Origin: Pseudomonadota bacterium
GTDB taxonomy: Bacteria > Pseudomonadota > Alphaproteobacteria > Sphingomonadales > Sphingomonadaceae
DNA length: 64,000 nucleotides
Reading direction: 5' to 3'
Assembly: GCA_039027675.1 (NCBI GenBank)
Contig: JBCCJS010000001.1
Span: 93,168-157,167 of the forward strand
The translations under genes and the position numbers were made by a program. The notes beneath the pieces were generated by a model that was not told where the DNA came from, searched no databases, and saw only the letters and a program-made list of their open reading frames with translations. Below, one piece after another: positions 4,797-35,203 of the stretch. How positions within the stretch are numbered: the first letter of the stretch is position 1; each line of letters begins with the position of its first letter.

Positions 4797-7067
4797 TTAG
4801 CGCCCGCCCTGAGAACCAGCAGCCCGCCACCAGCCATGCGCGCCCTGCCCGCTGGCAACGTCGATGATGCGCTTGGCTTCAAGGTCAAGAGCAAGGCCGC
4901 CATGCTCGTTGAGATAGCGCCGGTCGGCTTTCAGCCAGCGCGGGCGGCAAGAACGAGGGAGGTAGCGTGCGGCAACGACAATGTCCGAGCGCTCGCACGC
5001 TGCGGCCAGCGCGCGCTCTTCGATAAAGTCATTGTTGCGGGCCATGAGCACAGTCCACTCGCGCCCTCCGCGCTCAAGCGTGACAATGCAGAATTCGCGC
5101 GAGCATCGTGCACCGGGCCATTGCGAAATCGGAATGGGCTCTGCCGTGACGCTGGCAAGCTCAAGCAGATTGTCGCGGGCATAGCTGGAGCGGGTGTCTC
5201 GCAGCGAAAGCAAGCGGCCATCGCCCAGCGTAATGCCGACATGACGTCCCTCGCGCCCGATCAGAACATCAGGAATGGGAGTAAGGAGAAGAAAAATGAC
5301 GGCTACCCCTACCGGCACAAGCCCAAGCAGCCGCGCACGGTGGTTCCACAGCGCAAGCCACAAACCGCCTGCTGTAAACAGCGCAATCGTCAGCCCGGAC
5401 ATCTGAGGCATCAGCTTGACAGCGCCCGGCTGCGAAGACGTGAAGCGAGCAAGACCCAGTAGCGCTTCGAGTGACAGACCAGCGAGCCACCACACTGGCG
5501 CGCCCAGCCCGATCACATCAAGCGCCAATGCGATAGCGATAAGCGGCATGGATATGAACGTAACAAGCGGAATGGCAATCACATTGGCAAGCGCACCGTA
5601 CACCCCCGCTCGGTGAAAGTGGAACATGACCACAGGCATTAGCGCGATCTCGATCACCAGCCCGGTGATGAACAGCATCAAGACCCGCCGCCCTGTCCGC
5701 TTGAGCCACGGCTCATCGCGTGCCTTCAAGAACTCGCGCACGGGGCTCGACGTATGCAGCGCAACGATTGCCAGAACCGCGCTGAAGCTCATCTGGAAGC
5801 TGGGACCGATGACGCTCTCGGGCCACAGCAGGAGGACGATGAGAGCCGCCACGGCAACCATGCGCAGCGACAAGGCCTCACGCCCCAACACCAGCGCGCC
5901 GAGCACCAGCAGCGCAGCGACACAGGCGCGCACGGTCGGAACCTGCGCGCCGGTCAGCAGGGTGTAGCTAATGCCTGCCAGAGCGCCAATGCCCGCTGCG
6001 ACGATCGGCAAGCGCACCCGCAAGGCGAGCGCCGGGACGAGGGCCAGCAGCTTGAGCGCTAGCAAGTAGCCCGCTGCGATCACCGCACTCACATGCAGCC
6101 CGCTGATCGCGAGCAAGTGTGTGAGGCCCGCGTCGCGCATGGCATCCGCATCCTCGGCCGCAATTGCGCCCCGGTCACCGCTGGCAAAGGCGGCGGCAAT
6201 CGTGCCCGGCGATCCGTCGAGGCGCGAGCGCACATGGGTCGAGAGCGCGCGCTGCCACTGCGCGATCACCGAGCCACCTTGCGCAGGCTCTGCATGCTGG
6301 ATCTCGCCAATGAGGCTGCCCGTCGCTGCAAAGCCCTCGAACCAAGCAGCCCTAGCAAAATCGTAAGAACCGGGCAGCATCGGGCTTGCTGGGGGCATCA
6401 GCCGCACGTTCGCCCGGATTTGAGCGCCTTCGCGAAGCACATCGGCGCCCTCAGAACTGAAACGCGCCTCCACCCGGTCAACCTCGGCAAGAGGGACGTT
6501 GATGCGGATCTTGCGGCTCTCCCCGCTCGCAGCGTCGCGCACCGCGAGGACAAGTCTGATGCGGTCTTCAGAAGGCTGATCCTGACGCTCGAGCACATAG
6601 CCCTGCACCCGCTCAATCCGCGGATACTCGATCGCCTGCGCACCCACCACTTCCGAGCGGACCCAGATCACCGCGATCCCGGCTGCAAACACCAATGCAA
6701 CTGCCATTACAGCGGAGCGCAGATGCGCGCGGGTCACGTCCGCCTCCCCCCCACGAGGCCAAAGAGCAAGCGCTGCAAGAGCCAGCAGCACGCTAACGCC
6801 AATCGCACCCATCCATTGCCACTGCGTCTCAAGATTGAACCAAGCAAGGATACCGCTAGCAAAGGCAACTGCCAGCCATGGGGTGCGATCAAATCCCGCC
6901 TCAGTGAGAAACGCTTCTGCGCGGTTCGCCACGGCGCTGGACAATCCCTGGCCCCTTTGCCACAGGCGCACAGCTTCGGTCCCTTGCGGGCTGTCCGGGG
7001 CGGATCGCTTGGCAGCGGGGCTGCTTTGCGGGTCGTCCCCCAAAGGAATAATCGGCGTATCGGCCAT
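4797..7067 (-). CDS. comEC: ComEC/Rec2 family competence channel protein
   Basis: Motifs [12 protein letters not shown] and FQMSFSAV, many TM segments and an N-terminal DUF4131-like region. Start placed at MADTP (7067). Confidence 0.92.
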
Positions 7068-18434: not shown

Positions 18435-19154
18435 TTAGACAATGTCGCCAGCGCGAATGACACGTTCAGAGCCATCCGCCAAGCGCAGGCGCAATGCGCC
18501 ATCGGTTTCATCAAGGCCCGCAAACACGCCTTCGACAAAGCTACCGTCCTGATCATGAACCTTTACGGGCGCTCCCGGCGTTTGGATTGAGCATAGCTCA
18601 AACTCAGCAAGCGTTGCTGCAAGGCCGTGCTCTCGCCAGCTTTTGAGGCGCTCTTCGAAGCGATGAGCCAGTGTCTGGGCAAAACTATCTACTGCGGGTG
18701 CCGGTCCGAAGTCAGCCAAAGAAACGGCATCGCGGTCTTCCAATGAAGGGGCGCGCGCAAGGTTTACACCAATACCGACAACAAGGTGCCCCTTGACCAT
18801 CTCAAGCAGGATACCGGCTAGCTTCGCCCTGCCGATCAGAACGTCATTGGGCCATTTGAGCGAGGGCCTTGCACCGTCCGCTAAAATGTCGCCCACCGCA
18901 TCATAGACCACAAGCGCAGCCACGAAGCTTACGCTCGCGGGCGGCGGATCGCCAGAGAGCAATTCTACCGTGGTAGAGCCCATGAAATTGCCCGTCCCAT
19001 CAAACCATTCGCGCCCCTGTCGGCCTCGCCCAGCATTTTGGCGGCGCGCGACGAGCCATTGGCCGTCGCGCGCCTGCCCTGCGCGCACGCGATCAGCCAG
19101 ATCCGCATTGGTGGATCCGGTCTGTTCGACCATCTTGATTTCGAAACTGCTCAA
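18435..19154 (-). CDS. birA: Biotin--[acetyl-CoA carboxylase] ligase with no N-terminal HTH
   Basis: Motifs TGSTN, QNAGRGRQGREW, KWPNDV, KLAGIL and GIGVN. TTG start overlaps the nuoN stop; alternative ATG at 19133. Confidence 0.93.
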   Translation of the reverse strand: MSSFEIKMVEQTGSTNADLADRVRAGQARDGQWLVARRQNAGRGRQGREWFDGTGNFMGSTTVELLSGDPPPASVSFVAALVVYDAVGDILADGARPSLKWPNDVLIGRAKLAGILLEMVKGHLVVGIGVNLARAPSLEDRDAVSLADFGPAPAVDSFAQTLAHRFEERLKSWREHGLAATLAEFELCSIQTPGAPVKVHDQDGSFVEGVFAGLDETDGALRLRLADGSERVIRAGDIV

Positions 19155-20629
19155 ACCGCGAGGAACAGCGCGCTGGCAGCCTTGCCAGCCAAATCGTTGA
19201 GCGATGGCGTGAGCAGATAGCCCAGCGGCGAGATGATCGCAGCCGTCAGCCCCAGCAGAGCCCAATGGGCAGCCCCGCTCTTGCCGGTGACAAGATCAGT
19301 TGGTTCATCGAAGAACATCACCTTGACGAATTTGATGTAATAGAACGCGCCGATCACGCTTGCTGCGATGGCGATGGCGGCAAAGGCGATAAGCTCCGCT
19401 TCAACCAAGGCCTGAAACACGACGAATTTCGAATAAAAGCCCAGTAGTGGCGGGATGCCTGCAAGGCTAAACATCAGCAAGAGCAGACCCCACGCTATCG
19501 CCGGGCGCGTAACCGCAAGGCCGGATATATCGCCGAACGTCTCGTACAAATCGCCGCTCTCGCTGCGCAGCATCAGGAGGGCTGTAAAGCTTCCAAGGCT
19601 CATCGCGACATAGATGAAGAGATAGATCAGCATGCTCGCCGCCCCTGCCTCATTCGCAACCGCGAGGCCGAGCAGAATAAAGCCGACATTGTTGATCGAG
19701 GAATAGGCGAGAAGGCGCTTCAAGTTCTCCTGCCCAATCGCACCCAATGCGCCGAACACGATTGAGGCAAGCGCCGTGAACATGACGATCTGGCGCCAAG
19801 CGTCGACCTGCGCCCCGAACACCTCGAACACCACACGCGCAGTCAAAGCGACAGCGGCAACCTTGGGCGCGGTGGCGAAGAATGCGGTGACTGGCGTGGG
19901 TGCGCCTTCGTAGACGTCAGGCGTCCACATATGGAACGGCACAGCGGCGATCTTGAAGGCGAGACCCGCCATCACGAAGATGAGGCCGAAGAGCGCGCCG
20001 GTGCCCAATTCTCCCGTCAGCCCCGCGCGCACGCCTGCAAAGTCGGTTCCGCCAGTAAACCCGTACAAGAGGCTCATCCCGTAGAGCAGGATCCCCGATG
20101 CTAACGCGCCCAGCACGAAGTATTTAAGCCCAGCTTCGGCAGAGCGCGTATCGGCGCGCAGGATCGAGGCGAGGACGTAAGCGGAGAGGCTGTTGAGCTC
20201 GAGCCCAAGGTAAAGCGCCATGAAATCGTTGGCCGAGACCATGATACTCATGCCAAGCGCGGCAAACAGGATCAGAACCGAATATTCCGAGCGCATCCCG
20301 CGTTCCGCACCCGCAGCCTCGCTGTTGAAGAAGCCGGGTGCCACCAGCAGGCAGCCAATCGCCGCCAGATAGATGAGAGCCTTGGAGAACAGCGCAAAAC
20401 TGTCCGCCTTGAGAAGACCGCCAAAGGCCAGCGTATCAGGTCCGGTAGCGCCGGTGTGAAGACCGGGAACTAGCGTTACACCCGCAGCGAAGAAGGCGAG
20501 CACTGCAACCAGGCTGATCGCGCGTGCTGCCTTGTCTCCAGCCCACGCGGTCCACAACAGGAGGACAAGACCTGCCCCTGTGAGGATCAACTCAGGCGTG
20601 ATCAGCGCAAAGGAGGAGGCGAAATCCAT
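19151..20629 (-). CDS. nuoN: NADH-quinone oxidoreductase subunit N
   Basis: Motifs EAGLKYFVLG, FKIAAVPFHMWTPDVYEG and SLAGIPPLLGF. Confidence 0.97.
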   Translation of the reverse strand: MDFASSFALITPELILTGAGLVLLLWTAWAGDKAARAISLVAVLAFFAAGVTLVPGLHTGATGPDTLAFGGLLKADSFALFSKALIYLAAIGCLLVAPGFFNSEAAGAERGMRSEYSVLILFAALGMSIMVSANDFMALYLGLELNSLSAYVLASILRADTRSAEAGLKYFVLGALASGILLYGMSLLYGFTGGTDFAGVRAGLTGELGTGALFGLIFVMAGLAFKIAAVPFHMWTPDVYEGAPTPVTAFFATAPKVAAVALTARVVFEVFGAQVDAWRQIVMFTALASIVFGALGAIGQENLKRLLAYSSINNVGFILLGLAVANEAGAASMLIYLFIYVAMSLGSFTALLMLRSESGDLYETFGDISGLAVTRPAIAWGLLLLMFSLAGIPPLLGFYSKFVVFQALVEAELIAFAAIAIAASVIGAFYYIKFVKVMFFDEPTDLVTGKSGAAHWALLGLTAAIISPLGYLLTPSLNDLAGKAASALFLAV

Positions 20630-22197
20630 CAGTGCTCGTCATCCTTCCCGTTATCTGTTTGATAGGCGCTTTCAAAATAGGGAACGGCGTTCGCAGGCTC
20701 AGCCTTGGGTGCGCCCACGGCAAGCTGGCTGTCGCTCTCAGGCGCGGCGGATGCGAGCCTTGCATCAAGCGCAGCGATGTCATCGCGCATCGGGGCAAGG
20801 AAGCTCTCCGGATAAACACCCATCCACATCACCGCGGCCGCAATCGGGACCATCATCGCCCATTCGCGCGCCGTGATATCTGACATGGCCTGCGCGTCCT
20901 CGTTCTTCTCAGGCCCGAAGGCGACGCGGCGATAGAGGTAGAGCATGTAAGCAGCGCCCAAGATGATACCGGTCGTGCAGATCAGTGCGACCGTGGTCGA
21001 TACCTGATAAATGCCCGCCAGTGACAAGAATTCACCCACAAACCCGCTAGTGCCCGGCAATCCGATACTCGCCATGGTGAACAGCAGGAAAAACAGCGCG
21101 TAATAGGGCATGTTGTTGCTGAGCGCGCCGTAACGGTCGATCTCGCGCGTGTGGAGGCGATCATAGATCACGCCCACGCACAAGAAGAGCGCGCCCGAGA
21201 CGAGGCCGTGGCTGAGCATGATGATCACTGCGCCTTCCAGCCCCTGCACGTTGAAGGCAAACAGGCCGACCGTGACGATCGCCATATGAGCCACGCTGGA
21301 ATAGGCGATCAGCTTCTTCATATCGTGCTGCACCAGCGCGACGAGCGAAGTGTAGACCACCGCCACCATGGACAGCGCAAACACAAGCCAGGCAAAGTCA
21401 GCCGACGCCTGCGGAAACATCGGCAGGCTGAAACGCAGGAAGCCGTAGCCGCCCAATTTGAGCAGAACGCCAGCCAGGATGACCGAACCGGCAGTCGGAG
21501 CTTGCACGTGCGCATCGGGCAGCCATGTGTGGAACGGCCACATCGGCACCTTCACCGCAAAGCTCGCAAAGAAAGCCAGCCACAACCACGTCTGCGCGCC
21601 CGCCGGGAAATCGTATTGCATCAGCGTCGGGATGTCGGACGTTCCTGCCTCAGCCACCATCCAGAACATCGCGATCAGCATCAGCACCGAGCCAAACAAT
21701 GTGTATAGAAAGAACTTGTAGCTCGCGTAAATTCGGTTGTCCCCGCCCCAAACGCCGATGATCAGATACATCGGGATCAGGCCCGCCTCAAAGAAGACGT
21801 AGAACAGGAAGATATCCTGCGCGGCAAAGGTGCCGATCATCAGCGTTTCCATGAAGAGAAATGCGCTCATATATTCGCCCACGCGTTTCTGGATCGCGCC
21901 CCAGCTGGCCAGAATACAAATCGGCATCAGAAAGACGCTGAGCATGATCAGCAGAAGCGAGATACCGTCAATCCCAAGCGCATAGCTGAAGCCAGCGACA
22001 AGATCCGCACGCTCGGTAAACTGCCATTGCTCGCCGCCGATCTCGTACCCGGCCCACAGCATCACGCCCAGCGCAAAGGTTGCAAGCGTGGCGATCAGCG
22101 CGCTCCAGCGCGCCGCGCTAGCGCCTACGAACAGGCACGCGATCGCGCCTGCAAGCGGAACAAGCATCATGATGGTGAGAATGGGTAAGCCGTCCAC
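20629..22197 (-). CDS. nuoM: NADH-quinone oxidoreductase subunit M
   Basis: Motifs [20 protein letters not shown] and [12 protein letters not shown]. Confidence 0.97.
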
Positions 22198-22213
22198 GTG
22201 TCCCAGTCGTCCC

Positions 22214-24205
22214 CTAGAGCAGCGCGTACGTCGTTGCGGCGATCAGGCCAAGCAGCATGATCAGCGCATAAGTGTAGAGATAGCCCGACTGGATAGTCTT
22301 GGCTGCGACCGCTCCGCGCTGAACCATCCAGGCAACGCCATTGGGTCCGAACCGGTCAATTGTGCCCATATCACCCAGCTTCCAGAACTGGCGTCCGAAC
22401 CAGAAGGCGGGCTTGACGAAAGTCGCATTGTAGAGCTCGTCAAAGTACCATTTGCGGAAGACGAAATTGTGCAACGGCGCGATGGCGCTTGCGAACTTTG
22501 CTGGCACATCGGGCTTCAGAAGATAGGCGTAAATCGCTCCGCTCAGACCCAACAGCATCACGATGAAGGCTGAATACTTCACCCAATAAGGCACCTCATG
22601 CATCGCGTGAATGAGGTTCTCGTTGTAGAAAATTGAGCCGTCCCAGAACTCTGTACTATCGAGGAAGGCAGGAGCGAAGACCTGCCCGGCTGCCGCTGCG
22701 CCTACGGTGAGCAGCATCAGCGGGATTAGCATGACCCACGGGCTTTCATGAGGGTGATAACCGCCGGTTGTGTCGGCGCCGGCCTCTTCGGGCGTCTTGT
22801 GCACCGAATGCTGAATATGCTCGCTCTCGATCCATCGGGGGCTTCCCCAGAAGGTGAGGAACATCAGGCGCCAGGAATAGAAGCTCGTCAGCAGCGCCGC
22901 GATCACGCCCGCCCAGAAGGCGAATGTGGCAGCGCCCGTGCCGCGCGCAAAGGCGACCTCAATGATGGCATCTTTCGACCAGAAGCCCGCAAAGCCAGCC
23001 CCCAGATGATACACGCCCAGACCCGTAATCGCGAGCGTGCCCGCCATCATGGCCCAGAAGGTGACCGGGATGTCCTTACGCAAGGCACCATAATAACGCA
23101 TGTCCTGCTCATGATGCATGGCGTGGATGACCGAGCCTGCGCCAAGAAACAGCAGCGCCTTGAAGAAAGCATGCGTGAACAGGTGGAACATCGCTGCGCC
23201 ATATGCGCCCACGCCCGCTGCAAAGAACATATAGCCCAGCTGCGAGCAGGTTGAATAGGCGATCACGCGCTTGATGTCCCACTGCGTCGTGCCGATTGTG
23301 GCCGCAAAGAAGCAGGTCGCCGCGCCCACAATGGTCACCATGGTGAGCGCAATCGGAGCGGCTTCAAACATGGGCGACAAGCGGCAGACCATGAACACGC
23401 CTGCTGTCACCATGGTGGCTGCATGGATCAGCGCGGAGACGGGCGTTGGGCCTTCCATCGCATCGGGGAGCCACGTGTGCAGACCGAGCTGCGCGGACTT
23501 ACCCATGGCTCCGATGAACAGGAGGATGCACAAAATATCCATCGTTGGCCAGCGCATGCCAGCAAAGCCGATGGTAGCTCCACTCATGGCGGGGGCGGAT
23601 TCGAGGATTTCCGGGATTGACGTCGTCTGGAAGACCAGAAACGTACCAAAAATGCCGAGCATGAAGCCCAGATCACCCACGCGGTTGACCACGAAAGCCT
23701 TGATCGCCGCAGCGCCCGCGCTGGGCTTATGATACCAGAAACCGATCAGCAGATACGAGGCAAGCCCCACCCCTTCCCAACCAAAGAACATCTGAACGAG
23801 GTTATCCGCGGTCACCAGCATCAGCATGGCGAAGGTGAAGAGCGAAAGGTAGGCAAAGAAGCGCGGTTGGCTCTCGTCTTCCTCCATATAGCCCCAGCTG
23901 TAGAGGTGGACGAGCGCGGAGACGCTATTGATCACAACCAGCATGATCGCAGTCAGCGTGTCGACTCTAAGCGACCAGTCAAACGTCATCGCACCCGACT
24001 TCACCCAGGTGAGAAGGGACACGACTTCCGCTTCTGCGCTGCCAGTGAGAAAGCCGATAAAGATCGGCCAGCTCAGACCCGCCGACAAAAGCAACGCGCC
24101 AGTGGTCACCACCTTGGCCGGCACATTGCCGATCATGCGGTTACCGAAGCCAGCAATGATGGCCGCGATCAGAGGCGCAAAGACGATGATCTGGATCGAA
24201 TGCAT
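22214..24205 (-). CDS. nuoL: NADH-quinone oxidoreductase subunit L
   Basis: Motifs [32 protein letters not shown] and [10 protein letters not shown]. Confidence 0.97.
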
Positions 24206-24214
24206 AGCGGCGCC

Positions 24215-24529
24215 CTACCCCCTCATCCGGTTCACATCATCAACCGCGATAGTGCCGCGGCCTCGGAAATAGATGACGAGAATGGCAAGCCCGATTGCCG
24301 CTTCGCCCGCGGCCACAGTCAACACGAGCATCGCAAAAATCTGCCCGGTCAGATCGCCCAGCTCTGCGCTGAACGCGACCAGATTGAGGTTCACTGCAAG
24401 CAGGATGAGCTCAACCGCCATCAGGATGACGATCACATTTTTGCGATTGAGGAATATGCCCAGCACGCCGAGCACGAAAAGGATCGCGCCCACAACAAGG
24501 TAGTGCTCAATGCCGATAATCTCGTTCAC
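24215..24529 (-). CDS. nuoK: NADH-quinone oxidoreductase subunit K
   Basis: Motifs [12 protein letters not shown] and [11 protein letters not shown]. Confidence 0.97.
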
Positions 24530-25149
24530 AGCTCGACCCCCTCGCCCACGGTTGGCCGCTTCAACACGGTTGCCTCTTCCGGGCGGCGCGCGATCTGCTT
24601 GCCGATATCCTGACGCCCGCGCGCACCGGGCTTGGGTTCGCGGTGAGTGAGCACAATGGCGCCGATCATGGCGACCAGAAGGATGATCCCGGCAATCTCG
24701 AACAACAGGATATAGCGCCCGTAAAGCAACGCACCGATAGCCTCGATATTGCTCTGACCCGCAGCGGCGACGGCCGTGCCATTGGCTTGGCCAAGCTCAA
24801 TCCCGCCCGCTCCATAGGCTCCGACTGCGAGCATCAATTCAGCCAGCAGGACCGCAGCAATGGCGATACCCAGGGGGAAGTTGCGAACAAAGCCCGCGCG
24901 CATCGCAGCAAAGTCGATGTCGAGCATCATGACGACGAATAGGAACAACACCGCGACCGCGCCCACATAGACGATGACCAGCAGCATCGCGATGAACTCC
25001 GCGCCCACCAGAACCATCAGGCCCGCCGCGTTAAAGAACGCAAGGATGAGCCAGAGAACCGAGTGCACCGGATTGCGCGCCATGATCACCATCACGGCGC
25101 TTGCAATCACAACGCTTGCAAAAAGGTAGAAGGCAATAGCCTGTATCAT
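24526..25149 (-). CDS. nuoJ: NADH-quinone oxidoreductase subunit J
   Basis: Motifs NPVHSVLWL and [17 protein letters not shown]. Confidence 0.97.
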
Positions 25150-25291
25150 GATGGTTGAGCCGCTCGGTCGCCCAGCTTTCGGCCAGGCGCATGGTGCGGC
25201 GACGTGATCCCTTATTCATCCCTCGAACCCGACGCTAAGACCCTGTCCAATGGCCGGATTCGGTTATTCCATGTCCGTTTCGCAGACGCCC

Positions 25292-25780
25292 CTAGCGATA
25301 GGGCGCATCCGCTTCAAGATTGGCCGCGATGGCCCGCTCCCATTTGTCACCATTGGCGAGCAATTTTGCCTTGTCGTACAGCAATTCCTCGCGCGTTTCG
25401 GTGGCGTATTCAAAATTTGGCCCCTCGACGACAGCATCCACCGGGCAGGCCTCCTGACAAAAGCCGCAATAGATGCACTTCGTCATGTCGATGTCGTAGC
25501 GCGTGGTGCGGCGGCTGCCGTCTTCGCGCGGTTCGCTCTCGATGGTGATCGCCTGAGCCGGGCACACCGCTTCGCACAATTTGCACGCAATGCAGCGCTC
25601 TTCGCCATTCGGGTAACGGCGCAAAGCGTGCTCACCGCGAAAGCGCGGGGAGAGCGGCGACTTTTCGAAGGGGTAATTGATCGTAACCTTGGGCTTGAAG
25701 AAATACTTCAAGGTCAGCGCATGCGCCTTGAGGAATTCCCACAGGGTGAACGATTTGAGGAGCTGGGTTGCGGTGGTCAT
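25292..25780 (-). CDS. nuoI: NADH-quinone oxidoreductase subunit I
   Basis: Two 4Fe-4S motifs: [12 protein letters not shown] and [12 protein letters not shown]. Confidence 0.98.
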
Positions 25781-26250
25781 TCTTCCTCATCCGCTGGAAT
25801 GCACTTGCCTTCGGCCAAGACTTTCAGTGGTTCACGACGACCTTCTTCGAACCGAGTCAATGCGATAGGCTGGAAATGAAATTTGAGTGAGCCGTCGTCC
25901 TGCGCAGCGTAGTGAAGCGTCCCGCCGCAGTGACCTTCGGTGAACATGCAGGGCCCCCTGCCAACGACAAACACCGCGAAAGAAGAAGGGCCAGTTCGGA
26001 TCGCAGGACGCTTGCCCTCAAACTGGAGCGGGCTTGATGGCCAGACAATCTCAATCTCACGTTCGGTCTTGATAAGGCCGAACTTCCAGGCCGGATTGGT
26101 TTCCTGTCCAAATTGGATCGGCGATCCCGAAACACCCTCGTCGCTGGAGCTCAATGCATAGATGTTACCGAACGAACACGCGTATGACTGCGCCGATGCC
26201 GCGGTTGAGGAGGCGACGGCAAGGAGCACGATTGAAGCCTTCCCAATCAT
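25777..26250 (-). CDS. Hypothetical secreted protein inserted between nuoH and nuoI
   Basis: 157 aa with a signal peptide (…ASSTAASA) and 4 Cys. ATGA overlaps at both ends. Confidence 0.8.
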
Positions 26251-27293
26251 CCGAAATGCCCCGTCGCCATCAAATAGCCGCTGATTAGCGCGACAAACAA
26301 AAGACTCATCGGCAGGAAGACTTTCCAGCCAAGCCGCATCAGCTGATCATAGCGGTACCGGGGAACGGTCGCCCAGATCCAGCTGAACATGAAGAAGAAC
26401 ATAAAGGTCTTCAGCAGGAACCACACGATCCCCGGCACATAATAGAGCGGCGCCCACTCAATCGGCGGCAGCCAACCGCCCACGAACAGCAGCGTGCACA
26501 GCGAGCACATCAGCAGGATGTTGGCGTATTCGCCGAGCCAAAACAGCGCGAAGGCCATGCTCGAATACTCGGTCTGATACCCGGCGACGAGTTCGCTTTC
26601 GGCTTCAGTCAAGTCGAACGGAGCGCGCGCAGTCTCAGCCAGCGCCGAGATGAAGAACACGACGAACATCGGAAACAGCAGCGGATGCACAAAATGCGCG
26701 TTGACGATGCCAAGGCCAAAGCCTTTCTGGCTCATCACAATCTCGCTCATATTGAATGAGCCGACGAACAGCACCACGCACACAAGCACAAAGCCGATGG
26801 AAACCTCGTAAGAAATCATCTGCGCCGCCGCGCGCATGGCCGAAAAGAACGGGTATTTCGAGTTCGACGCCCACCCGCTCATCACCACGCCGTAAACACC
26901 CAGAGAGCTGATCGCTAGGATGTAGAGCAGGCCGACATTGATGTCCGCCATCACCACACCGTCGGCGAACGGGATCACCGCCCAGGCGGCAAGTGCTACG
27001 GTAAAGGTGATGATCGGCGCGAGCAGGAAGATGCCCTTGTTCGCCGCGCTGGGGATGATCGTCTCTTGGAGGAAGACCTTTAGGCCATCCGCAAACGACT
27101 GGAGCAATCCAAACGGTCCCACCACGTTCGGCCCCCGGCGCAACATGATCGCGCCCAGCACCTTGCGGTCAACATAGATCACCATTGCCACCGCCAGCAT
27201 GACAAGCAGCGAGATGATGACAATCCCGAGCACCGTCGCAATGGTCCAGGCCCATTCGAACGGCAGGCCGAGAGATTCGAAGAACGGGGTCAT
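26247..27293 (-). CDS. nuoH: NADH-quinone oxidoreductase subunit H
   Basis: Motifs [31 protein letters not shown] and PRYRYDQL. Confidence 0.97.
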
Positions 27294-27457
27294 TAGCCGT
27301 GCCAACTCACTTCGTGAATTTCGGTCGCGTCAGACCTACGCTTCTTTAGGTCTTCGCTAGTTTTACGCATGGTTATCCAGCCCGAAATCCTGAATATTGC
27401 AACGATCAAAAGGAGAGCCGTGACAACTGCACCGATTATGATCAACGCAGTTGTCAT
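27293..27457 (-). CDS. Small single-TM protein inserted between nuoG and nuoH
   Basis: 54 aa ([22 protein letters not shown]...). ATGA overlap with the nuoG stop and TAATG overlap with the nuoH start. Confidence 0.7.
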
Positions 27458-29469
27458 TCCGCCGCCTCCTTGATTTCGTCCGCGTGGAGCAGTTCGGCTG
27501 AGCATTGCTGCATGACGTGGCTTGCGCGGGCGATCGGGTTGGTGAAGTAGAAGTCGGCGATCGGGTAGGCGGTGATTTCGCCTTCCGCCTTCGCGCTCGC
27601 GTCAGCCTTGGGCAGCGCGCCGTAATCCGCGAGGCCCTCTTCGCCCAGCGCCGGCACTTCGGCGATCATCGCTGATTGCAACTCGGCAAAGCTGTCAAAC
27701 CCGACACTCACGCCCAAAGCGTCCGCCAAAGCACGCAGGATCGTCCAGTCTTCGCGTGCGTCGCCCGGTGCGAAGACGGCCTTTTCAGCGAACTGAACGC
27801 GTCCTTCGGTGTTGACGTAGGTCCCGTCTTTTTCGGCGTAGGAGGCCGCTGGCAGGATGATATCGGCTGCATGCGCGCCCTTGTCACCGTGGTGGCCGAT
27901 ATAGACCTTGAGGCTGTCTGCGAACGGGGCAAAGTCCATCTCATCCGCGCCAAGACTGAAGATGACCTTGGGAGCCGCCACCGCGATTTCCGCCATGCCG
28001 CCTTCGACCGTGAAATCGAGCATCAGCGAACCCATACGCGCCGCGCTCATATGCAGCACGTTGAAGCCGTTCCACCCGTCTTTGACGAGGCCAAACTTTT
28101 CGACCAGCTTCAGCGCCGGAGCCAGCGCTCCCTTAGCCAGAGCCGCGCCGCCCAGAATCACCGCCGGACGCTCAGCCGCCTTCATCGCGTCGCCAATCGC
28201 CTTGGGGACACGGTTCAGGATTTTCAGATCATTGCCCACAAACTCAGCCGGATAGGTGGTCTCCCATTCCGGGCCGATAACGAAGACCTTGGCGCCATTC
28301 TTGGCCGCCTTGCGGATGCGCGGGTTCGCCAGCGCCGCTTCCCAGCGGATGTGGCTGCCGATGATGAGGATCGCGTCAGCGGTCTCGATGCCTGCAAGGG
28401 TCGAATTAAAATTCACCGCCGCTATGTTCGAGACATCGTAGGTCATGCCCGTCTGACGCGCTTCGACAAGCGATGAACCGCAGGCCCTGAGCAGCGCCTT
28501 GGCCGCGAACATGGTCTCGCAATCGACGATATCGCCTGCGATCGCCGCGACCGAAGTCTTGTCCTTGTCCAACGCTCCGGCAATGATACCAAATGCCTGG
28601 CTCCAGTTGGACGAGGTGAGCTTTCCGTTCATGCGAACATAGACGCGGTCCAGTCGACGCTTGGTCAGACCGTCAACCTGATAGCGCCCTTTATCCGACA
28701 ACCATTCCTCGTTCACATCATCGTTAACACGCGGCAGAGCGCGCATGACTTCGCGCCCCTTGGAGTGGAGCGAGATGTTGGCACCAACCGCGTCTGAAAC
28801 ATCGATGCTGAGAGTTCGCTTCAATTCCCACGGACGTGCTTCGAAGGCATAGGGGCGCGAGGTGAGCGCTCCCACGGGGCACAGATCGATCACATTGGCC
28901 GAAAGCTCATGCGCGGCGGCCTGTTCGAGATAGGTTGTGATCTGCATGTCCTCGCCGCGATAGAGCGCGCCGATTTCATCCACGCCCGCAATCTCTTCAG
29001 AGAAGCGAACGCAGCGTGTGCAGTGGATGCAGCGGGTCATGACCGTCTTGATCAGCGGGCCCATATATTTCTCGGTCACTGCACGGCGATGCTCCTGCGT
29101 GCGGGCAACACCGCGCCCATAGGTCATCGACTGGTCTTGCAGGTCGCATTCGCCGCCCTGGTCGCAAATCGGGCAATCGAGCGGGTGGTTGATGAGAAGA
29201 AACTCCATCACGCCTTCGCGCGCCTTCTTGACCATCGGCGTGTTGGTGCGAATTTCCTGCCCCTCGCCCGCTGGCAGCGCACAAGAAGCCTGAGGCTTGG
29301 GAGGTCCCGGCTTCACTTCAACGAGGCACATCCGGCAGTTACCGGCGATACTTAAACGCTCGTGGTAGCAAAACCGCGGGATTTCCTTGCCCGCCAGCTC
29401 GCAAGCCTGAAGAACCGTTGCGCCCGCCGGGACGTCGATTTCTTCGCCGTCTACGGTGACCTTAGGCAT
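27454..29469 (-). CDS. nuoG: NADH-quinone oxidoreductase subunit G
   Basis: Motifs CYHERLSIAGNCRMC, HPLDCPICDQGGEC and CIHCTRC. Confidence 0.98.
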   Translation of the reverse strand: MPKVTVDGEEIDVPAGATVLQACELAGKEIPRFCYHERLSIAGNCRMCLVEVKPGPPKPQASCALPAGEGQEIRTNTPMVKKAREGVMEFLLINHPLDCPICDQGGECDLQDQSMTYGRGVARTQEHRRAVTEKYMGPLIKTVMTRCIHCTRCVRFSEEIAGVDEIGALYRGEDMQITTYLEQAAAHELSANVIDLCPVGALTSRPYAFEARPWELKRTLSIDVSDAVGANISLHSKGREVMRALPRVNDDVNEEWLSDKGRYQVDGLTKRRLDRVYVRMNGKLTSSNWSQAFGIIAGALDKDKTSVAAIAGDIVDCETMFAAKALLRACGSSLVEARQTGMTYDVSNIAAVNFNSTLAGIETADAILIIGSHIRWEAALANPRIRKAAKNGAKVFVIGPEWETTYPAEFVGNDLKILNRVPKAIGDAMKAAERPAVILGGAALAKGALAPALKLVEKFGLVKDGWNGFNVLHMSAARMGSLMLDFTVEGGMAEIAVAAPKVIFSLGADEMDFAPFADSLKVYIGHHGDKGAHAADIILPAASYAEKDGTYVNTEGRVQFAEKAVFAPGDAREDWTILRALADALGVSVGFDSFAELQSAMIAEVPALGEEGLADYGALPKADASAKAEGEITAYPIADFYFTNPIARASHVMQQCSAELLHADEIKEAAE

Positions 29470-29756
29470 TAGCGGATCACCTCAATACCCTTGACGCAGA
29501 GCGACGGAGTAGGCGTCAGTGGCCCAGTTATCCGAACGCCCCAGCCCTTATCCACGTGATCTGCAACGTCGTCCAAGGCTCTAAGAAGCTTCATGTTCTC
29601 TTTTACATTCCAGCGACGCTTACCGTCTTTCCCGACCACACCTTCAGGCGAATAGACTCGATAAAAGCCGTCTGCATGCCGGTGAGCGTACCGAATTTCT
29701 GCTCCGCCTTTTCGAGGGCCGGTTGAGAAAACGTGCTTTTTCTGAACGACAGTCAC
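29469..29756 (-). CDS. Hypothetical basic soluble protein inserted between nuoF and nuoG
   Basis: 95 aa. GTGA overlap with the nuoF stop and TAATG overlap with the nuoG start. Confidence 0.75.
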
Positions 29757-31057
29757 TCCGCCGCCTCCTGAAGCTCAGGCGCAAACTGCGCGTTGTGCTC
29801 TTCAATCCGGCGCTCCAGCTCGGGGCGGAAGTGGCGGATGAGGCCCTGGATCGGCCACGCCGCCGCATCGCCCAAAGCGCAGATCGTGTGGCCTTCGACC
29901 TGCTTGGTGACCTCGTGCAGCATATCGATCTCTTCGATGGCCGCATCGCCGGTGCGCAGGCGCTCCATGACGCGCCACATCCACCCGGTGCCCTCGCGGC
30001 ACGGGGTGCACTGGCCGCAGCTTTCGTGCTTGTAGAAGTAACTGAGGCGGCTGATCGCGCGCACGATGTCGGTGGACTTGTCCATCACGATCACGGCGGC
30101 GGTGCCAAGCCCTGAGCCCAGCTCCTTAAGCCCATCAAAATCCATCGGCGCTTGGCGAATCTGCTCAGCAGGAACAAGCGGCACCGAAGACCCGCCTGGA
30201 ATAACCGCCAGCAGATTGTCCCACCCGCCTCGAATGCCGCCGCAATGCTTCTCGATAAGCTCTTCGAAAGGAATGCTCATTTCCTCTTCGACCACGCAGG
30301 GGTTTTCGACATGACCGCTGATCTGGAAAAGCTTGGTGCCGGCATTGTTCTCGCGCCCGAAGCTCGTGAACCAGCCCGCCCCGCGCCGCAGGATCGTGGG
30401 CGTCACCGCAATGCTCTCAACGTTGTTGACCGTGGTCGGGCAGCCATAAAGGCCCGCACCTGCCGGAAATGGTGGTTTGAGGCGCGGTTGGCCCTTCTTG
30501 CCCTCAAGGCTTTCGATCATCGCGGTCTCTTCGCCGCAAATGTAAGCGCCCGCGCCGCGATGCATGAAGACGTCGAAATCGCAGCCCGAGCCGCTCGCGT
30601 TCTTGCCGATCAGGCCTGCGTCATACGCCTCGTCGATAGCCGCCTGCAGCGTCTCGGCCTCGCGGATATATTCGCCGCGGATGTAGATATAGGCCGCCCT
30701 CGCGCGCATGGCGAAGCCGGCAATCAGCGCGCCTTCAACCAGCTTGTGCGGATCGTGGCGCAGGATTTCACGATCCTTACAGCTGCCCGGTTCGGATTCG
30801 TCAGCATTGATGACGAGGAAGCTGGGACGCCCGTCCTTGCTTTCCTTCGGCATGAACGACCACTTGAGCCCGGTCGGAAAACCCGCTCCGCCCCGGCCGC
30901 GAAGCCCCGATGCCTTGATCTCTTCAATGATCGAATCCTGCCCGCGCTCGATCAGGGCCTTGGTGTTGTCCCAATCGCCGCGCATCTGCGCTGCCTTGAG
31001 GCCCCAATCCTGAAAGCCGTAGACATTGGTGAAGATACGGTCCCGGTCAGCGAGCAT
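29753..31057 (-). CDS. nuoF: NADH-quinone oxidoreductase subunit F
   Basis: Motifs [29 protein letters not shown] and [12 protein letters not shown]. Confidence 0.98.
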
Positions 31058-31092
31058 CTCGAGCGTCCCTCTCAATAGCGTCAGCCAGCATC
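31046..31092 (-). repeat. Duplicated nuoF start (13-bp direct repeat, 12/13 identical) framing a 14-codon mini-ORF
   Basis: GATGCTGGCTGAC (31092-31080) and GATGCTCGCTGAC (31058-31046). The mini-ORF 31091-31047 encodes [14 protein letters not shown]. Confidence 0.75.
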
Positions 31093-31269
31093 GGTTTCGT
31101 CCTTTTGAGCTTTTGATTTCTTTCCGACGACCCCCGTCAGCGCAGCAAAGGTCGCGCCAACGGCAATAAACACAGGGCCCATCGTTTCGCCCGAGACGAA
31201 TGTCATATAGACGCCAACGCCCATATTCAGCAGCGCTGCGAACAGCATGACCCCTTGCCCAGTCGTCAT
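31081..31269 (-). CDS. Small two-TM protein inserted between nuoE and nuoF
   Basis: 62 aa with two hydrophobic helices and a basic/acidic tail. ATGA overlap with the upstream insert. Confidence 0.7.
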
Positions 31270-31457
31270 TCTTGCTCACCCTGATCCATCGTGGACTTCT
31301 TCGCCATCTTCATATGCCGAAGCGTAAGAGCCTGAAACATCAGACCAAACCCCATGAACGTGATCCCCAGCATGCGCTCACCGGTGGAGGCAAGATACGC
31401 GCCCGCCAGAAAGCCAATGAGACCGGCAATAGCCAGAGCAAGGAAGCCGCCGTTCAT
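31266..31457 (-). CDS. Small two-TM protein inserted immediately after nuoE
   Basis: 63 aa ([22 protein letters not shown]...). TGATG overlap with the nuoE stop. Confidence 0.72.
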
Positions 31458-32125
31458 CACCATTCTCCCCGATAATCGTGATTGGCATCGACCATTTCTT
31501 TGAGAGTGGTGACGCCGGTCTTGGGTTCGGAGGTGTGGCGGCCGGGCTCTTGTGTGCCGGTTTTGGGTTGCTCTCTTGCCGCCAGCGCATCGAGCACGGC
31601 ATCGAGGCGTTCGGGGGTTAAGTCTTCGTAATTGTCGTCGTTGATCTGGACCATGGGCGCGGTGGCGCAATTGCCCATGCATTCCACTTCGGTGAGGGTC
31701 CAAAGGCCATCTTCGGAGACCCCGCCCTTCCTCATGCCGCGCGCCTTGCACGCGCTGATAATATCGTCCGAGCCGCGCAGCATGCACGGCGTCGTGCCGC
31801 AGACCTGCACGTGATATTTGCCCACCGGCTTCATGTTGTACATGAAATAGAAGGTCGCGACTTCAAGCACGCGGATCACCGGCATGTCAAGATAATCGGC
31901 GATATATTCAATCACCGGTAGCGGAAGCCAGCCTTGCGTATCAGTTTCTTCGCCAACCTGACGCTGACCCAGATCGAGAAGCGCCATGACCGCCGATTTC
32001 TGACGACCATCGGGGTATTTGGCGATGTGGTAATCCGCCTTCGCCTTGTTCTCTGGCGTCCAGGCAAAGTCGCCCCAGCGCGCGCGCAGTTCAGGCGTAT
32101 CGGGTGCGGGTGTGCGGTCAGCCAT
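31457..32125 (-). CDS. nuoE: NADH-quinone oxidoreductase subunit E
   Basis: 2Fe-2S motifs CGTTPC and ECMGNC. Start at MADRTP after SD AGAGG. Confidence 0.97.
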   Translation of the reverse strand: MADRTPAPDTPELRARWGDFAWTPENKAKADYHIAKYPDGRQKSAVMALLDLGQRQVGEETDTQGWLPLPVIEYIADYLDMPVIRVLEVATFYFMYNMKPVGKYHVQVCGTTPCMLRGSDDIISACKARGMRKGGVSEDGLWTLTEVECMGNCATAPMVQINDDNYEDLTPERLDAVLDALAAREQPKTGTQEPGRHTSEPKTGVTTLKEMVDANHDYRGEW

Positions 32126-32306
32126 TGGAAGCCTCTTTTTTTTCCAGATAGCGTGAAACAAAAAAGCAGGTCACCCATCCAAGCGACGTCCCAACTGCAA
32201 AGGGCTGGGCTTCGTTGATTCCCCAGACATAAAAGCACCAGAATAATGCGAGAGACGCGCCCAGCAGGACTAAATAAACTCCATAAATACGGGTCGTGAT
32301 ACTCAC
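32118..32306 (-). CDS. Small two-TM protein inserted between nuoD and nuoE
   Basis: 62 aa. GTGA overlap with the nuoD stop and an 8-nt overlap with the nuoE start. About 48% GC by hand count. Confidence 0.7.
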
Positions 32307-33508
32307 CGGTCACACTCCCCGAACACCACGTCAATCGCGCCCAGAATGGCGGTTGCGTCAGGCAGCATGTGGCCTTTGCTCATCATGTCCATCGCTTGCA
32401 GGTGGCTGAAGGCCGTGGGGCGGATCTTGCAGCGATACGGTTTGTTCGTGCCGTCGCTGACGAGATAGACGCCAAACTCGCCCTTGGGGCTTTCGGTCGC
32501 GACGTAGACCTCGCCGGCGGGCACGTGGAAGCCTTCGGTGTAGAGCTTGAAGTGGTGGATCAGGCTTTCCATCGACTGCTTCATCTCACCGCGCTTGGGC
32601 GGGGAGACCTTGCCATCAGTGCTCGCAATCGGGCCTTCGGGAATGTCGCGCAGGCATTGCTTGATGATCTTGGCGCTCTCGCGGATTTCGGCGACGCGGA
32701 CCATGAAGCGGTCGTAGCAATCGGAATTGGTGCCGACAGGAACCTCGAACTCCATGCGATCATAGACGTCATAGGGCTGCGACTTGCGGATGTCCCAGGG
32801 AATGCCGGCGGCGCGGATCATCGGGCCTGAGAAGCCCCACGCCACCGCATCATCGCGGCTGACCACGGCGATATCCACATTGCGCTGCTTGAAGATGCGG
32901 TTGTCGATGACAAGGCTCATCGCATCATCGAAGAGCTGAAACAGGCGATTGTCGATCCAGTCGCCAATATCCACCAGCAGCTTTTCGGGTACATCCTGAT
33001 GCACACCGCCAGGGCGGAACCAGGCCGAGTGCATGCGCGCACCAGACGCACGCTCGAAGAAAGTGAGGCAGTCTTCGCGCAGGTCCATCATCCACAGGTT
33101 AGGCGTGAACGCACCCACATCGAGCACATGCGCGCCCATGTTAAGGAAGTGGTTGCAGATGCGGGTCAGTTCGGCGAACAGGACACGCAGATATTGCGCG
33201 CGCTCGGGAACTTCGAGATCGAGCAGTTTTTCAATGGCAAGAACGTAAGAGTGTTCCTGACACAGCGGCGAGCAGTAATCGAGGCGGTCAAAATAGGGGA
33301 GCGCCTGCAGATAGGTCTTCTGCTCGATCAGCTTTTCGGTGCCTCGGTGAAGCAGGCCGACATGCGGGTCAATCCGCTCGATCACTTCGCCGTCGAGCTC
33401 CATCACCATGCGCAAAACACCGTGAGCGGCCGGGTGCTGGGGGCCGAAATTGATCGTGTAATTGGTGATGACTTCGCCGTCAGTGGTGGGCGATTCTTCG
33501 AGTTTCAT
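32303..33508 (-). CDS. nuoD: NADH-quinone oxidoreductase subunit D
   Basis: Motifs [27 protein letters not shown] and ESPKGE. Confidence 0.98.
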
Positions 33509-34212
33509 CAGTCCTCACCCTCCTCATCAGCGATTTCGAAGGCAACGCCGTCCTTGGGCTCTTCCGGTTCGTCGTCAGCGTCAGGCTCAGGGGCGGGCTC
33601 GGTGGCCTTTTCATCGCCCGGAAGGACGTAGTCCGAGCCTTCCCAGGGTGAGAGGAAGTCAAACGTGCGCATGTCCTGCGCCAGCTCAACCGGCTCATAC
33701 ACGACGCGCTTTTCATCCTCGGAATAGCGCAGTTCTGTGTAGCCCGTCATCGGGAAGTCCTTGCGGAACGGGTGCCCTTCAAAGCCGTAGTCAGTGAGAA
33801 TGCGGCGCAAGTCCTTGTTGCCTGCAAAGGTGACGCCGAACATGTCGAACACTTCACGCTCAAGCCATCCGGCATTGGGCCACAAGGTCGTTACGGTGGG
33901 AACGGGCGTGTCCTCATCGGTCGAGAGCTTGACCATGATCCGGTGGTTCTTGGTCAGCGAAAGCAGCATGTAGACGACTTCGAAGCGCTCAGGGCGGTCC
34001 TGATAATCCGCGCCCGCGATCTCCATCAGCTGCTGGTATTCGTGCTCATCGCGCAGGGTTTGCAGCACGGTTTCAATCTGGTCACGCTTCGCAGTAAGAA
34101 TGATTTCCCCATGCTCTTCACGCGCGCCGTCGAGCCAGACGCTGACGCTCGCCATCAGCGCGTCGAGAACGCCTTCGTTCGAGGCGTATTTGGGGGCGGA
34201 GTGAGCGACCAT
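33508..34212 (-). CDS. nuoC: NADH-quinone oxidoreductase subunit C
   Basis: Motifs EREVFDMFG and [18 protein letters not shown]. Confidence 0.97.
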
Positions 34213-34220
34213 GACAGCGC

Positions 34221-34820
34221 CTACCGCTCAATCGTCCCGACACGGCGGATTTTGCGCTGCAATTGCATCACACCATAGAGCAGCGCCTCAGCCGTCGGAG
34301 GGCAGCCAGGAACATAAATGTCGACCGGCACAATGCGATCACAACCGCGCACAACTGAGTAGCTATAGTGGTAATAGCCACCGCCATTGGCGCAAGAACC
34401 CATGCTGATCACATATTTTGGGTCCGACATCTGGTCATAGACCTTGCGAAGCGCCGGGGCCATCTTGTTGCACAAAGTACCCGCAACGATCATCAGGTCT
34501 GACTGGCGCGGGGATGCGCGCGGGGCAGCGCCAAAGCGCTCCATGTCATAGCGCGGCATGTTCACATGGATCATCTCGACCGCGCAGCACGCAAGGCCAA
34601 AGGTCATCCACCACAAAGAGCCGGTGCGCGCCCAGTTGAACACGTCCTCGGTCGAAGTGATCAAAAAGCCCTTGTCGTTCACCTCGGTCGACAGCGCGTT
34701 GAAATAGTCCTGATCGGGCTGCTTCACCTCACCGCCCTTTGCGGTCGGCATCATCTGCGCGGCCTCAGCCGTGCTGAGCGGCGCAGTCGGAGGCGTAATG
34801 ATGGTTGAAGGCTTGTTCAT
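34221..34820 (-). CDS. nuoB: NADH-quinone oxidoreductase subunit B
   Basis: Motifs [17 protein letters not shown] and YVPGCPP. Confidence 0.98.
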
Positions 34821-35203
34821 TCCCAATCCAACGCCCCTTTCTTCCACTCATAAGTGAGGCCGATGGCCAGAATGCCGAGAAAGGTCATCATACCGCCCCA
34901 GCCAATCCAGCCCGTCTCACCCAGGCTGACGGCCCAGGGAAACAGAAACGCAGCCTCAAGGTCGAAAATGATAAAACTGATCGCAACGAGATAAAAGCGA
35001 ACATCAAACTGACTGCGCGAGTCCTCAAAAGCGGGAAAGCCGCATTCGTATTCCGAGAGCTTGTCGGCATTGGGCTTGTGCGAGCCGGTCAAACGCGAAA
35101 CGCCCATGGGCAGAAACACGAAGAGCACAGAAAGGCCCAACGCGATGAAGATGAATAACAGTATCGGCAGATACTGGCTCAGGTCGATCACGACAGTGTC
35201 CAA
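34817..35203 (-). CDS. nuoA: NADH-quinone oxidoreductase subunit A
   Basis: Motifs YECGF and [14 protein letters not shown]. The start may be GTG at 35191. Confidence 0.96.

Follow-up and report, generated by a model that had tools for sequence, protein, structure and literature searches.

Extra open reading frames (ORFs) in the respiratory complex I (nuo) operons of alphaproteobacteria have been known for about 30 years, since the 1990s, and have been ignored in surveys. The nqo cluster of Paracoccus denitrificans comprises 14 genes together with six unidentified reading frames (URFs), which fits its locus-tag span. There, nqo5 corresponds to Pden_2248 and nqo13 to Pden_2232 (PMC8115037). 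The Rhodobacter capsulatus nuo operon likewise contains URFs, such as urf7 (CAA71016), which encodes a 257-aa methyltransferase-like protein (PMC9036352), and the survey of Spero et al. in 2015 accepted up to 9 non-nuo ORFs between nuo genes, without analysing them (PMC4453560). Here, we describe six such ORFs in the nuoA–nuoN operon of a member of the Sphingomonadaceae (Sphingomonadales), contained in a 64,000-nucleotide stretch of contig JBCCJS010000001.1 (assembly GCA_039027675.1), which we refer to as the window. No open paper on these ORFs in Sphingomonadales was found in the literature. We consider it probable that the six ORFs are long-resident, junction-specific accessory genes like the URFs of Paracoccus and Rhodobacter, with frequent replacement of the occupants, and their analysis adds gene families and some new regularities to a long-known feature of alphaproteobacterial nuo operons.

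The resemblance to the described URFs is one of position and orientation. In both cases co-oriented non-nuo ORFs lie between core genes, mainly in the nuoD–nuoJ part, and their products do not belong to the 14 core subunits. The six ORFs are co-oriented within an uninterrupted operon, their host is an alphaproteobacterial 14-gene nuoA–N operon, and in scans against Pfam and NCBIfam they displayed no homology to core subunits or to characterised families. They differ in belonging to Sphingomonadales and in encoding mostly membrane or exported proteins of 54–95 aa, in contrast to the larger, methyltransferase-like urf7 product, which resembles none of the six.

A second point of reference is given by PdN7BM, PdNUYM and PdNUMM of P. 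denitrificans, which are encoded outside the operon. Purified P. denitrificans complex I contains 14 core and 3 supernumerary subunits, the latter being NDUFS4-, NDUFS6- and NDUFA12-like (PMC8115037, PMC12361115). These proteins (PdN7BM/NDUFA12, PdNUYM/NDUFS4 and PdNUMM/NDUFS6) resemble the six ORF products in being small and lineage-restricted; their membership in complex I has been shown in Paracoccus (PMC8115037, PMC12361115), whereas for the six ORFs it is only proposed. They furthermore have homologues among the mitochondrial subunits and are recovered together with the purified enzyme, whereas the six ORFs match none of these families.

Six extra genes between nuoD and nuoI

The operon and the six same-strand non-nuo ORFs, identified in the ORF list and its translations, occupy the following window positions:

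19151–35203, minus strand: nuoA–nuoN operon (complex I), 14 core genes in canonical order (ORF list with translations, tblastn)
32118–32306, minus strand: DE62, 62 aa, D/E junction
31266–31457, minus strand: EF63, 63 aa, E/F junction
31081–31269, minus strand: EF62, 62 aa, E/F junction
29469–29756, minus strand: FG95, 95 aa, F/G junction
27293–27457, minus strand: GH54, 54 aa, G/H junction
25777–26250, minus strand: HI157, 157 aa, H/I junction

A first-pass annotation of this DNA had placed six extra small genes at these junctions, two of them at E/F, and all six were recovered there on the minus strand. Its description of almost all junctions as start/stop overlaps agrees with 10 of the 11 insert boundaries, which overlap by 1, 4 or 8 nt (GTGA, ATGA, TGATG, TAATG or ATGGCTGA). 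GTGA joins nuoD to DE62 and nuoF to FG95, TGATG joins nuoE to EF63, ATGA is found at EF63–EF62, nuoG–GH54, nuoH–HI157 and HI157–nuoI, and TAATG at FG95–nuoG and GH54–nuoH. DE62 starts with the GTG of its overlap with the nuoD stop and ends 8 nt inside nuoE, forming the only 8-nt overlap, and EF62–nuoF is the sole insert boundary with a spacer (23 nt). The Shine–Dalgarno (SD) sequences of downstream genes, which the same annotation had located within several inserts, correspond to SD-like purine-rich runs within the 3′ ends of DE62, EF62, FG95 and HI157. As the start/stop overlaps chain the ORFs to their neighbours, ribosomes can pass from nuoD to nuoI without an untranslated gap. Promoter- or terminator-like sites in the operon did not exceed shuffle expectation, and an Rfam scan of the operon yielded zero matches.

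The inserts have a GC content of 47–56% compared to 58–62% for the nuo genes, and the values counted by hand in the first pass match ours (48.1% for DE62, 47.3% for GH54 and 53.5% for FG95 versus 62.4% for nuoF). Their GC content at third codon positions (GC3) of 0.51–0.66 corresponds to the 0–21st percentile of the genome ORFs of at least 300 aa (median 0.71).

Hydropathy analysis indicated transmembrane (TM) segments in DE62, EF63, EF62 and GH54, in line with the four small membrane proteins expected from the first pass, as well as a signal-like segment at the amino terminus of HI157 and zero hydrophobic segments in FG95. The products are thus mostly envelope proteins, comprising two to three TM hairpins, one single-pass protein and one exported beta protein with conserved cysteines, with FG95 as a soluble beta protein. 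Scans against Pfam, NCBIfam (curated cut-off) and PADLOC gave zero matches above the cut-off for all six ORFs, the NDUFA12, NDUFS4 and NDUFS6 Pfam families were absent among their matches up to E = 1, and no PDB chain matched the FG95 or HI157 profiles. The format of EF63, EF62, GH54 and DE62, very short TM proteins from a respiratory operon, is reminiscent of CydX of cytochrome bd, a small membrane protein encoded in a respiratory operon that binds its enzyme, is kept in all instances of that operon and is indispensable for activity. Unlike CydX, the six ORFs are patchy and replaceable between sister species.

Conservation, replacement and coupling of the junction genes

To place the inserts among their relatives, the 14 Nuo proteins were mapped by tblastn onto 17 same-genus operons, 3 operons of other families and 80 named loci, where the nearest named NuoG matches came from Erythrobacter spp. 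(Sphingomonadales) at 88% identity, placing the window in this genus. Homologues of EF63, FG95, GH54 and HI157, sharing 44–97% identity, are located at the same junction in other Sphingomonadales in every context examined. For these four genes the proportion of nonsynonymous differences (pN) lies far below that of synonymous differences (pS) in all computed pairs, with pS saturated; judged by this pattern, they are under purifying selection. The first-pass annotation had named neutral divergence as the outcome that would speak against real genes, and these values depart from it clearly.

FG95 is a soluble, beta-rich protein of an uncatalogued, strongly conserved family. A search returned 37 clusters at 60–89% identity, of which 35 are 93–97 aa long and two are 55-aa pieces, and the alignment contains 26 invariant columns. 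FG95 was found at F/G in five of five independent contexts, with homologues at loci L101, L102–104, L105–107 and L041. Altererythrobacter aerius carries it directly before nuoG, as do a sphingomonad from freshwater and a metagenome-assembled genome (MAG) of the Sphingomonadaceae, and a more distant member lies in the F/G gap of Novosphingobium acidiphilum. Its identities of 77%, 61% and 69% are similar to the 77%, 68% and 62% that NuoG shows in these genomes, and a pN of 0.15 compared to a pS of 0.68 was obtained against L101. The AlphaFold2 (AF2) model shows a confident beta-rich fold with a pLDDT (predicted local distance difference test) value of 90.7, and neither fold nor sequence-profile searches of the PDB gave a significant match, which makes FG95 a strongly conserved 95-aa protein whose confidently predicted fold lacks a counterpart in the solved structures.

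EF63 is a two-TM hairpin whose family is present in most species of the genus, always at E/F: phmmer matched 17 other genus-level loci with E-values of 3e-21 to 5.5e-9, all at this junction, and pN was 0.26–0.31 versus a pS of 0.60–0.77. EF62, also a two-TM hairpin, is a tandem paralogue of EF63 (phmmer E of 0.004 to the EF63 of the window) that matches E/F ORFs of L002, L022, L032 and L009 at about 2e-5 and an E/F ORF of L108 at 50% identity. GH54 has a single TM segment and a basic tail conserved as RK.S...KK.RPDA..I; its eight homologues of 51–59 aa share 44–87% identity, it is located at G/H in all three contexts examined, including L003 and L113, and its pN of 0.39 contrasts with a pS of 0.74. 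Counting HI157, described below, no fewer than five of the ORFs appear from these comparisons to be genuine and conserved genes, and on the same comparisons recent insertion is rejected for at least five of them.

Recent passenger entry had been one of the two options of the first-pass annotation, and it was not sustained in view of the same-junction homologues, the saturated pS and the zero mobile-element signature. In this scenario, the ORFs would be mobile cassettes brought in by a site-specific or transposition mechanism, such as an integron, an insertion sequence (IS), a miniature inverted-repeat transposable element (MITE) or a stem-bracketed intervening sequence (IVS), as might be suspected from the low GC and GC3 of the inserts and from MITE-like repeats at nuo junctions of relatives. 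We regard it as extremely improbable. A repeat scan detected no direct or inverted repeats bracketing the inserts, a search for target-site duplications or shared insert ends returned only the ATGA common to the boundaries, and the insert boundaries offer no spare non-coding DNA that could house an attC-like site. As already noted in the first pass, no transposase or integrase is nearby: tyrosine recombinases (PF00589) and rve transposases (PF00665) were found only on other contigs and none on that of the window, other transposase families not having been scanned. Outside the nuo operons of Sphingomonadales the families were not seen, every comparison with a homologue gave saturated synonymous sites, and no nearly identical copy turned up at another locus or in an unrelated genome.

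The low GC3 is also not a sign of recent arrival, as far as these comparisons go, because homologues are likewise low in other loci and synonymous sites are saturated. Four other loci were compared: the flanking nuo genes exceed the FG95 and HI157 homologues widely in GC3 in three of them and modestly in L102; in A. aerius, FG95 has a GC3 of 0.60 compared to 0.88–0.89 for its neighbours. The low values reflect either another codon-usage equilibrium, caused by weak expression-linked bias or selection in the coupling regions, or frequent transfer between hosts.

The filling of these junctions varies across about 80 related operons, often with different ORFs even in sister species. Within the genus, the D/E, E/F, F/G, G/H and H/I gaps range from a 1–4 nt overlap up to about 750 nt, whereas the A/B, C/D and K/L to M/N junctions of the same operons are tight with few exceptions, inserts are seen now and then at B/C and J/K, and I/J has a spacer of either about 30 or about 140 nt. 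The same variability was observed in Novosphingobium, Sphingomonas, Sphingobium and Allosphingosinicella and partly in Brevundimonas and Rhizobiales loci; compact nuo operons were seen in several other alphaproteobacteria, mostly unclassified MAGs. Occupancy was traced on a tree of concatenated Nuo proteins from 35 operons with parsimony counting of changes:

D/E: occupied in 31 of 35 operons, 4 changes
E/F: occupied in 27 of 35 operons, 5 changes
F/G: occupied in 25 of 35 operons, 8 changes
G/H: occupied in 11 of 35 operons, 9 changes
H/I: occupied in 9 of 35 operons, 8 changes

Conservation in all relatives, which the first pass had set against a recent insertion, is thus not what we observed: occupancy is scattered, for instance at G/H and H/I, and the ORFs of the sister species are dissimilar. 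This sister (L001) has all five junctions filled, with D/E, F/G, G/H and H/I ORFs unlike those of the window, which indicates that occupants are replaced and not merely lost. Clustering of the gap ORFs yielded multi-member families nearly all restricted to a single junction, those found at several junctions being MITE-like repeats. A hydrophobic segment is present in 43–84% of the D/E, E/F, F/G and H/I ORFs compared to 8% of antisense ORFs. The junctions share with accessory-gene hotspots that fixed sites of a conserved operon repeatedly carry variable cargo, and differ from them in that the cargo consists of junction-faithful envelope families and not of defence, toxin-antitoxin or nuclease genes (none detected by PADLOC), with one junction having its occupant fused to a core subunit.

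Scanning the window from nuoD to nuoI against 22 genus-level operons, we observed that the closest relative by nucleotide identity shifts along the sequence, L003 being nearest through much of nuoF, L022 in mid-nuoG and other loci elsewhere, with the tree sister L001 rarely nearest. This shift may reflect recombination mosaicism or differences in composition. A recombination call from this nearest-neighbour scan was rejected: saturation of the synonymous sites makes its mosaic pattern too noisy.

Coupling is retained whatever the occupant. Genus-level operons provided 74 occupied junctions. In 57 of these the upstream stop and the first ORF overlap by at most 20 nt, the overlap measuring exactly 4 nt in 47, and in 66 the last ORF runs into the downstream start. 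Empty junctions read TAATG at D/E and F/G and ATGA at G/H and H/I; at occupied D/E and F/G junctions the upstream stop becomes a TGA within RTGA. Across 83 related operons, sense ORFs cover 0.98–1.00 of the D/E to H/I gaps, compared to 0.49–0.68 for shuffled and 0.47–0.78 for antisense sequence, and the junction layout exceeds chance expectation. Even the MITE-like inserts of L010 form ORFs whose ends coincide precisely with the upstream stop and the downstream start. We infer from this layout that continuous translation through the operon is probably under selection and filters or reshapes whatever lands at a junction.

Taken to its extreme, such selection could make the peptides irrelevant, the open frames serving as translated spacers that pass ribosomes on to the next nuo gene, avoid Rho-dependent polarity and keep subunit stoichiometry. 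This would fit the overlapping sense ORF that spans nearly all gaps with any content, MITE-like repeats included, and DE62 in particular. DE62 has one clear and one weaker TM segment, its GC at the three codon positions is flat (0.48/0.46/0.51), giving the weakest coding signal of the six, and a word-seeded search of 5.8 billion clusters returned only itself; no significant similarity (Z ≤2.5) was found to the D/E ORFs of relatives. The latter are mostly hydrophobic, 60–80 aa long and without detectable mutual similarity, sharing an ...NG* ending by stopping in-frame 8 nt inside nuoE. DE62, which in these respects counts against a long-resident gene, may be either very young or merely a translated spacer, and we hold the spacer to be a serious possibility for this ORF while stopping short of favouring it. 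For the set as a whole, irrelevance of the peptides is very unlikely, considering that the amino acids of FG95, HI157, EF63 and GH54 are strongly conserved at saturated synonymous sites and that conserved cysteines, motifs and a confident fold are present; it would hold at most for DE62 and the repeat-derived ORFs of relatives.

On the view of long-resident accessory genes with frequent replacement, the junctions would be the only places in the operon tolerating extra DNA, selection for uninterrupted translation or coupling would shape the ends of every occupant, and occupants would often be lost and replaced, probably by homologous recombination via the highly conserved flanking nuo genes and not by a dedicated mobile element. 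The H/I protein and possibly others could act as dispensable lineage-specific accessory or assembly factors at complex I. What the locus and its relatives add to the known URFs is a set of junction-faithful, conserved and patchy families in one bacterial order, with coupling kept whatever the occupant.

MITE-like or repetitive extragenic palindromic (REP)-like repeats were observed at the E/F, G/H and K/L junctions of L010, at F/G of L012 and L026 and in several Sphingomonadales G/H gaps, where they are read as ORFs that bridge the gap exactly, their translations containing ..PFALSLSKGCPSF..FDKLSPNG.., ..PELVSGP..MLKQVQHDG.. and ..IPAKAGIQ..PAFAGMT... Furthermore, the 3′ ends of nuoG and nuoF in the window (27453–27470 and 29752–29769) have in common a 17/18-nt coding-strand motif, AGGAGGCGGCGGA(A/G)TGAC, in which an SD is followed, after a spacer of 7 nt, by a start codon that overlaps the stop; both NuoF and NuoG end in ..EAAE, and the motif is kept in relatives with the junction occupied or empty.

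HI157, the NuoH extension and a possible link to complex I

HI157 is an exported all-beta protein with a signal peptide ending in ASA|Q and four conserved cysteines. Its search returned eight clusters at 67–97% identity, every one of 157 aa, and it was located at H/I in five contexts, with homologues at loci L108, L077, L102 and L114/115; pN was 0.11 and pS 0.73. The AF2 model is all-beta with a pLDDT of 74 and gave weak barrel-like matches only, with no significant match in the PDB by fold or sequence-profile search. An alignment of 17 different H/I ORFs contained only two invariant columns, both cysteines, one just past the signal peptide and the other about 8–12 residues before the carboxy-terminus, and a Pfam scan of these 17 ORFs detected no shared family. 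A single detectable H/I family was tried and rejected, as the HI157 profile reaches only a close subfamily and the unity consists of the two cysteines, the architecture and a weak hhalign match.

Four relatives have an apparently empty H/I junction, namely L002 (G002), L023 (= G462), G564 and L094, the last of which is distant. In these, NuoH carries an in-frame carboxy-terminal extension of about 135 aa at the H/I position, the total length of NuoH being 481–485 aa in L002, L023 and L094; in G564 the extension lies in one continuous frame with nuoH. The extension sequences are located at:

L023:12278–12688, plus strand: NuoH extension
L002:7492–7911, minus strand: NuoH extension
L094:5594–6001, plus strand: NuoH extension
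L112:3700–4110, plus strand: NuoH extension

The extension consists of a linker, ..S-D/S-V/A-C-x-L/F.., about 100 residues and ..G-x-C followed by 8–14 residues, a two-Cys layout matching that of the 17 H/I ORFs. Comparison with the HI157 family by hhalign gave P = 0.003 over 52 columns, with the first cysteine and an IEIV[WY]P motif aligned, and this homology is suggestive only. NuoH is predicted to have eight TM segments with both termini outside according to the positive-inside rule, which would place the fused domain in the periplasm, where the H/I signal peptides send the free-standing proteins. The extension with its two-Cys layout in four relatives is a hint that complex I is the site of action of the H/I protein, and a role there for the H/I protein, and possibly for others, is plausible but unproven. 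It adds one piece of indirect support to the accessory-subunit option put forward in the first pass; homology to known accessory subunits was not found. At one junction, the occupant can appear as a fused tail of NuoH. A shorter NuoH tail of about 30 aa, rich in proline, alanine and threonine (e.g., DRPAPLVDPDSVPPSEFVETTPAQPLAVSEAS), was observed in L022, L012, L014, L024 and L026, where H/I is otherwise empty.

Several results weigh against a long-resident accessory role. The homology of extension and HI157 is weak, with an HHsuite probability of 11%, and in searches with hidden Markov models (HMMs) the extension profile does not reach the free-standing H/I ORFs. In genome G518 the extension domain occurs away from nuo in two free-standing proteins, each with a membrane anchor (L109:3170–3697, plus strand; L110:3510–4052, minus strand), which indicates that the domain is not exclusive to the operon. 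The FG95 profile (E ≤ 1e-5) had zero matches in 400 genomes of the order, with 12 candidates scored per genome such that weak copies could be missed, and its absence from these genomes indicates that FG95 is rare and dispensable for complex I; genome searches for FG95 and HI157 (E ≤ 0.01) likewise did not find them in 40 relatives. A recombination tract around FG95 would raise the identity to A. aerius near the 3′ end of nuoF or the 5′ end of nuoG, and a sliding window over the two operons showed no such rise. Repeated horizontal movement or low expression could likewise explain the low GC3. Finally, no product of an operon URF has been reported as a subunit of P. denitrificans complex I (PMC8115037).

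Much of this would be expected if the ORFs encoded real proteins unrelated to complex I, such as generic envelope proteins, as hitchhikers kept by steady expression and by the rarity of clean deletions that spare the coupling of the essential neighbours, their position reflecting descent and flank recombination. The patchy distribution and dispensability, a GC3 persistently below that of the host nuo genes, the extension domain outside nuo in G518, the composition of the Paracoccus enzyme and clearly unrelated cargo at other Sphingomonadales junctions (SnoaL-like, cupin, retropepsin-like and DUF4160/DUF2442-type pairs) point in this direction. Such hitchhiking is a real possibility that we nevertheless consider doubtful. 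FG95, GH54 and HI157 occupy their own junction in every context examined, the six ORFs have no paralogue elsewhere in their own genome (the EF62/EF63 pair itself aside), and the in-frame NuoH extension at H/I in four relatives is hard to account for by an unrelated passenger. The six ORFs were found inside the nuo operon in every context examined, yet in a small minority of complex I genomes.

A more far-reaching form of the accessory-gene reading, which we consider unlikely, would give Sphingomonadales complex I a variable periplasmic and membrane 'outer shell' of small, fast-evolving, junction-encoded proteins swapped between species. The two-Cys beta domain of H/I would be docked on or fused to the periplasmic carboxy-terminus of NuoH, the E/F, G/H and D/E products would pack on the membrane arm as single- or double-pass helices and FG95 would be a new-fold partner of the NuoF/NuoG module. 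If true, this shell would be a bacterial, still-evolving analogue of the acquisition of mitochondrial supernumerary subunits, with the nuo junctions as its nursery. If any of the products binds complex I, the system would offer a tractable bacterial model for the origin of supernumerary subunits; if none does, it would be a clean case of an essential operon that tolerates and constrains cargo.

Other cargo and the nuoI–nuoJ spacer

The neighbours of the two G518 copies were named by eye from their translations: cytidine/tRNA-deaminase-like and RNase T2-like ORFs accompany one copy, and YbeY-, CorC- and PhoH-like ORFs the other. Further cargo was observed at the nuo junctions of relatives. A 119-aa D/E ORF is SnoaL/NTF2-like by eye, a cupin occurs at D/E and retropepsin-like proteins at F/G or G/H, an exported cysteine-containing protein of about 230 aa is found at F/G in 22–23 loci, and a pair that is DUF4160/DUF2442-like by eye is present at F/G in another order. 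The examples are located at L102:3209–3580 and 6288–6698, at G/H of L064, at F/G of L020 and at D/E of L012 and about 20 further loci.

Within the nuoD–J part of the operon, a single long untranslated gap is present:

25150–25291, minus strand: nuoI–nuoJ spacer, 142 nt, non-coding

The spacer has no match in Rfam. It contains a GGGATCA core, with GGGA-CA invariant, that is kept in 14 genus-level operons, followed downstream by a nested stem GCCGC...GCGGC enclosing an inner hairpin, the sequence of which differs with the pairing kept in about six relatives. The spacer could contain an mRNA processing, stability or attenuation element.

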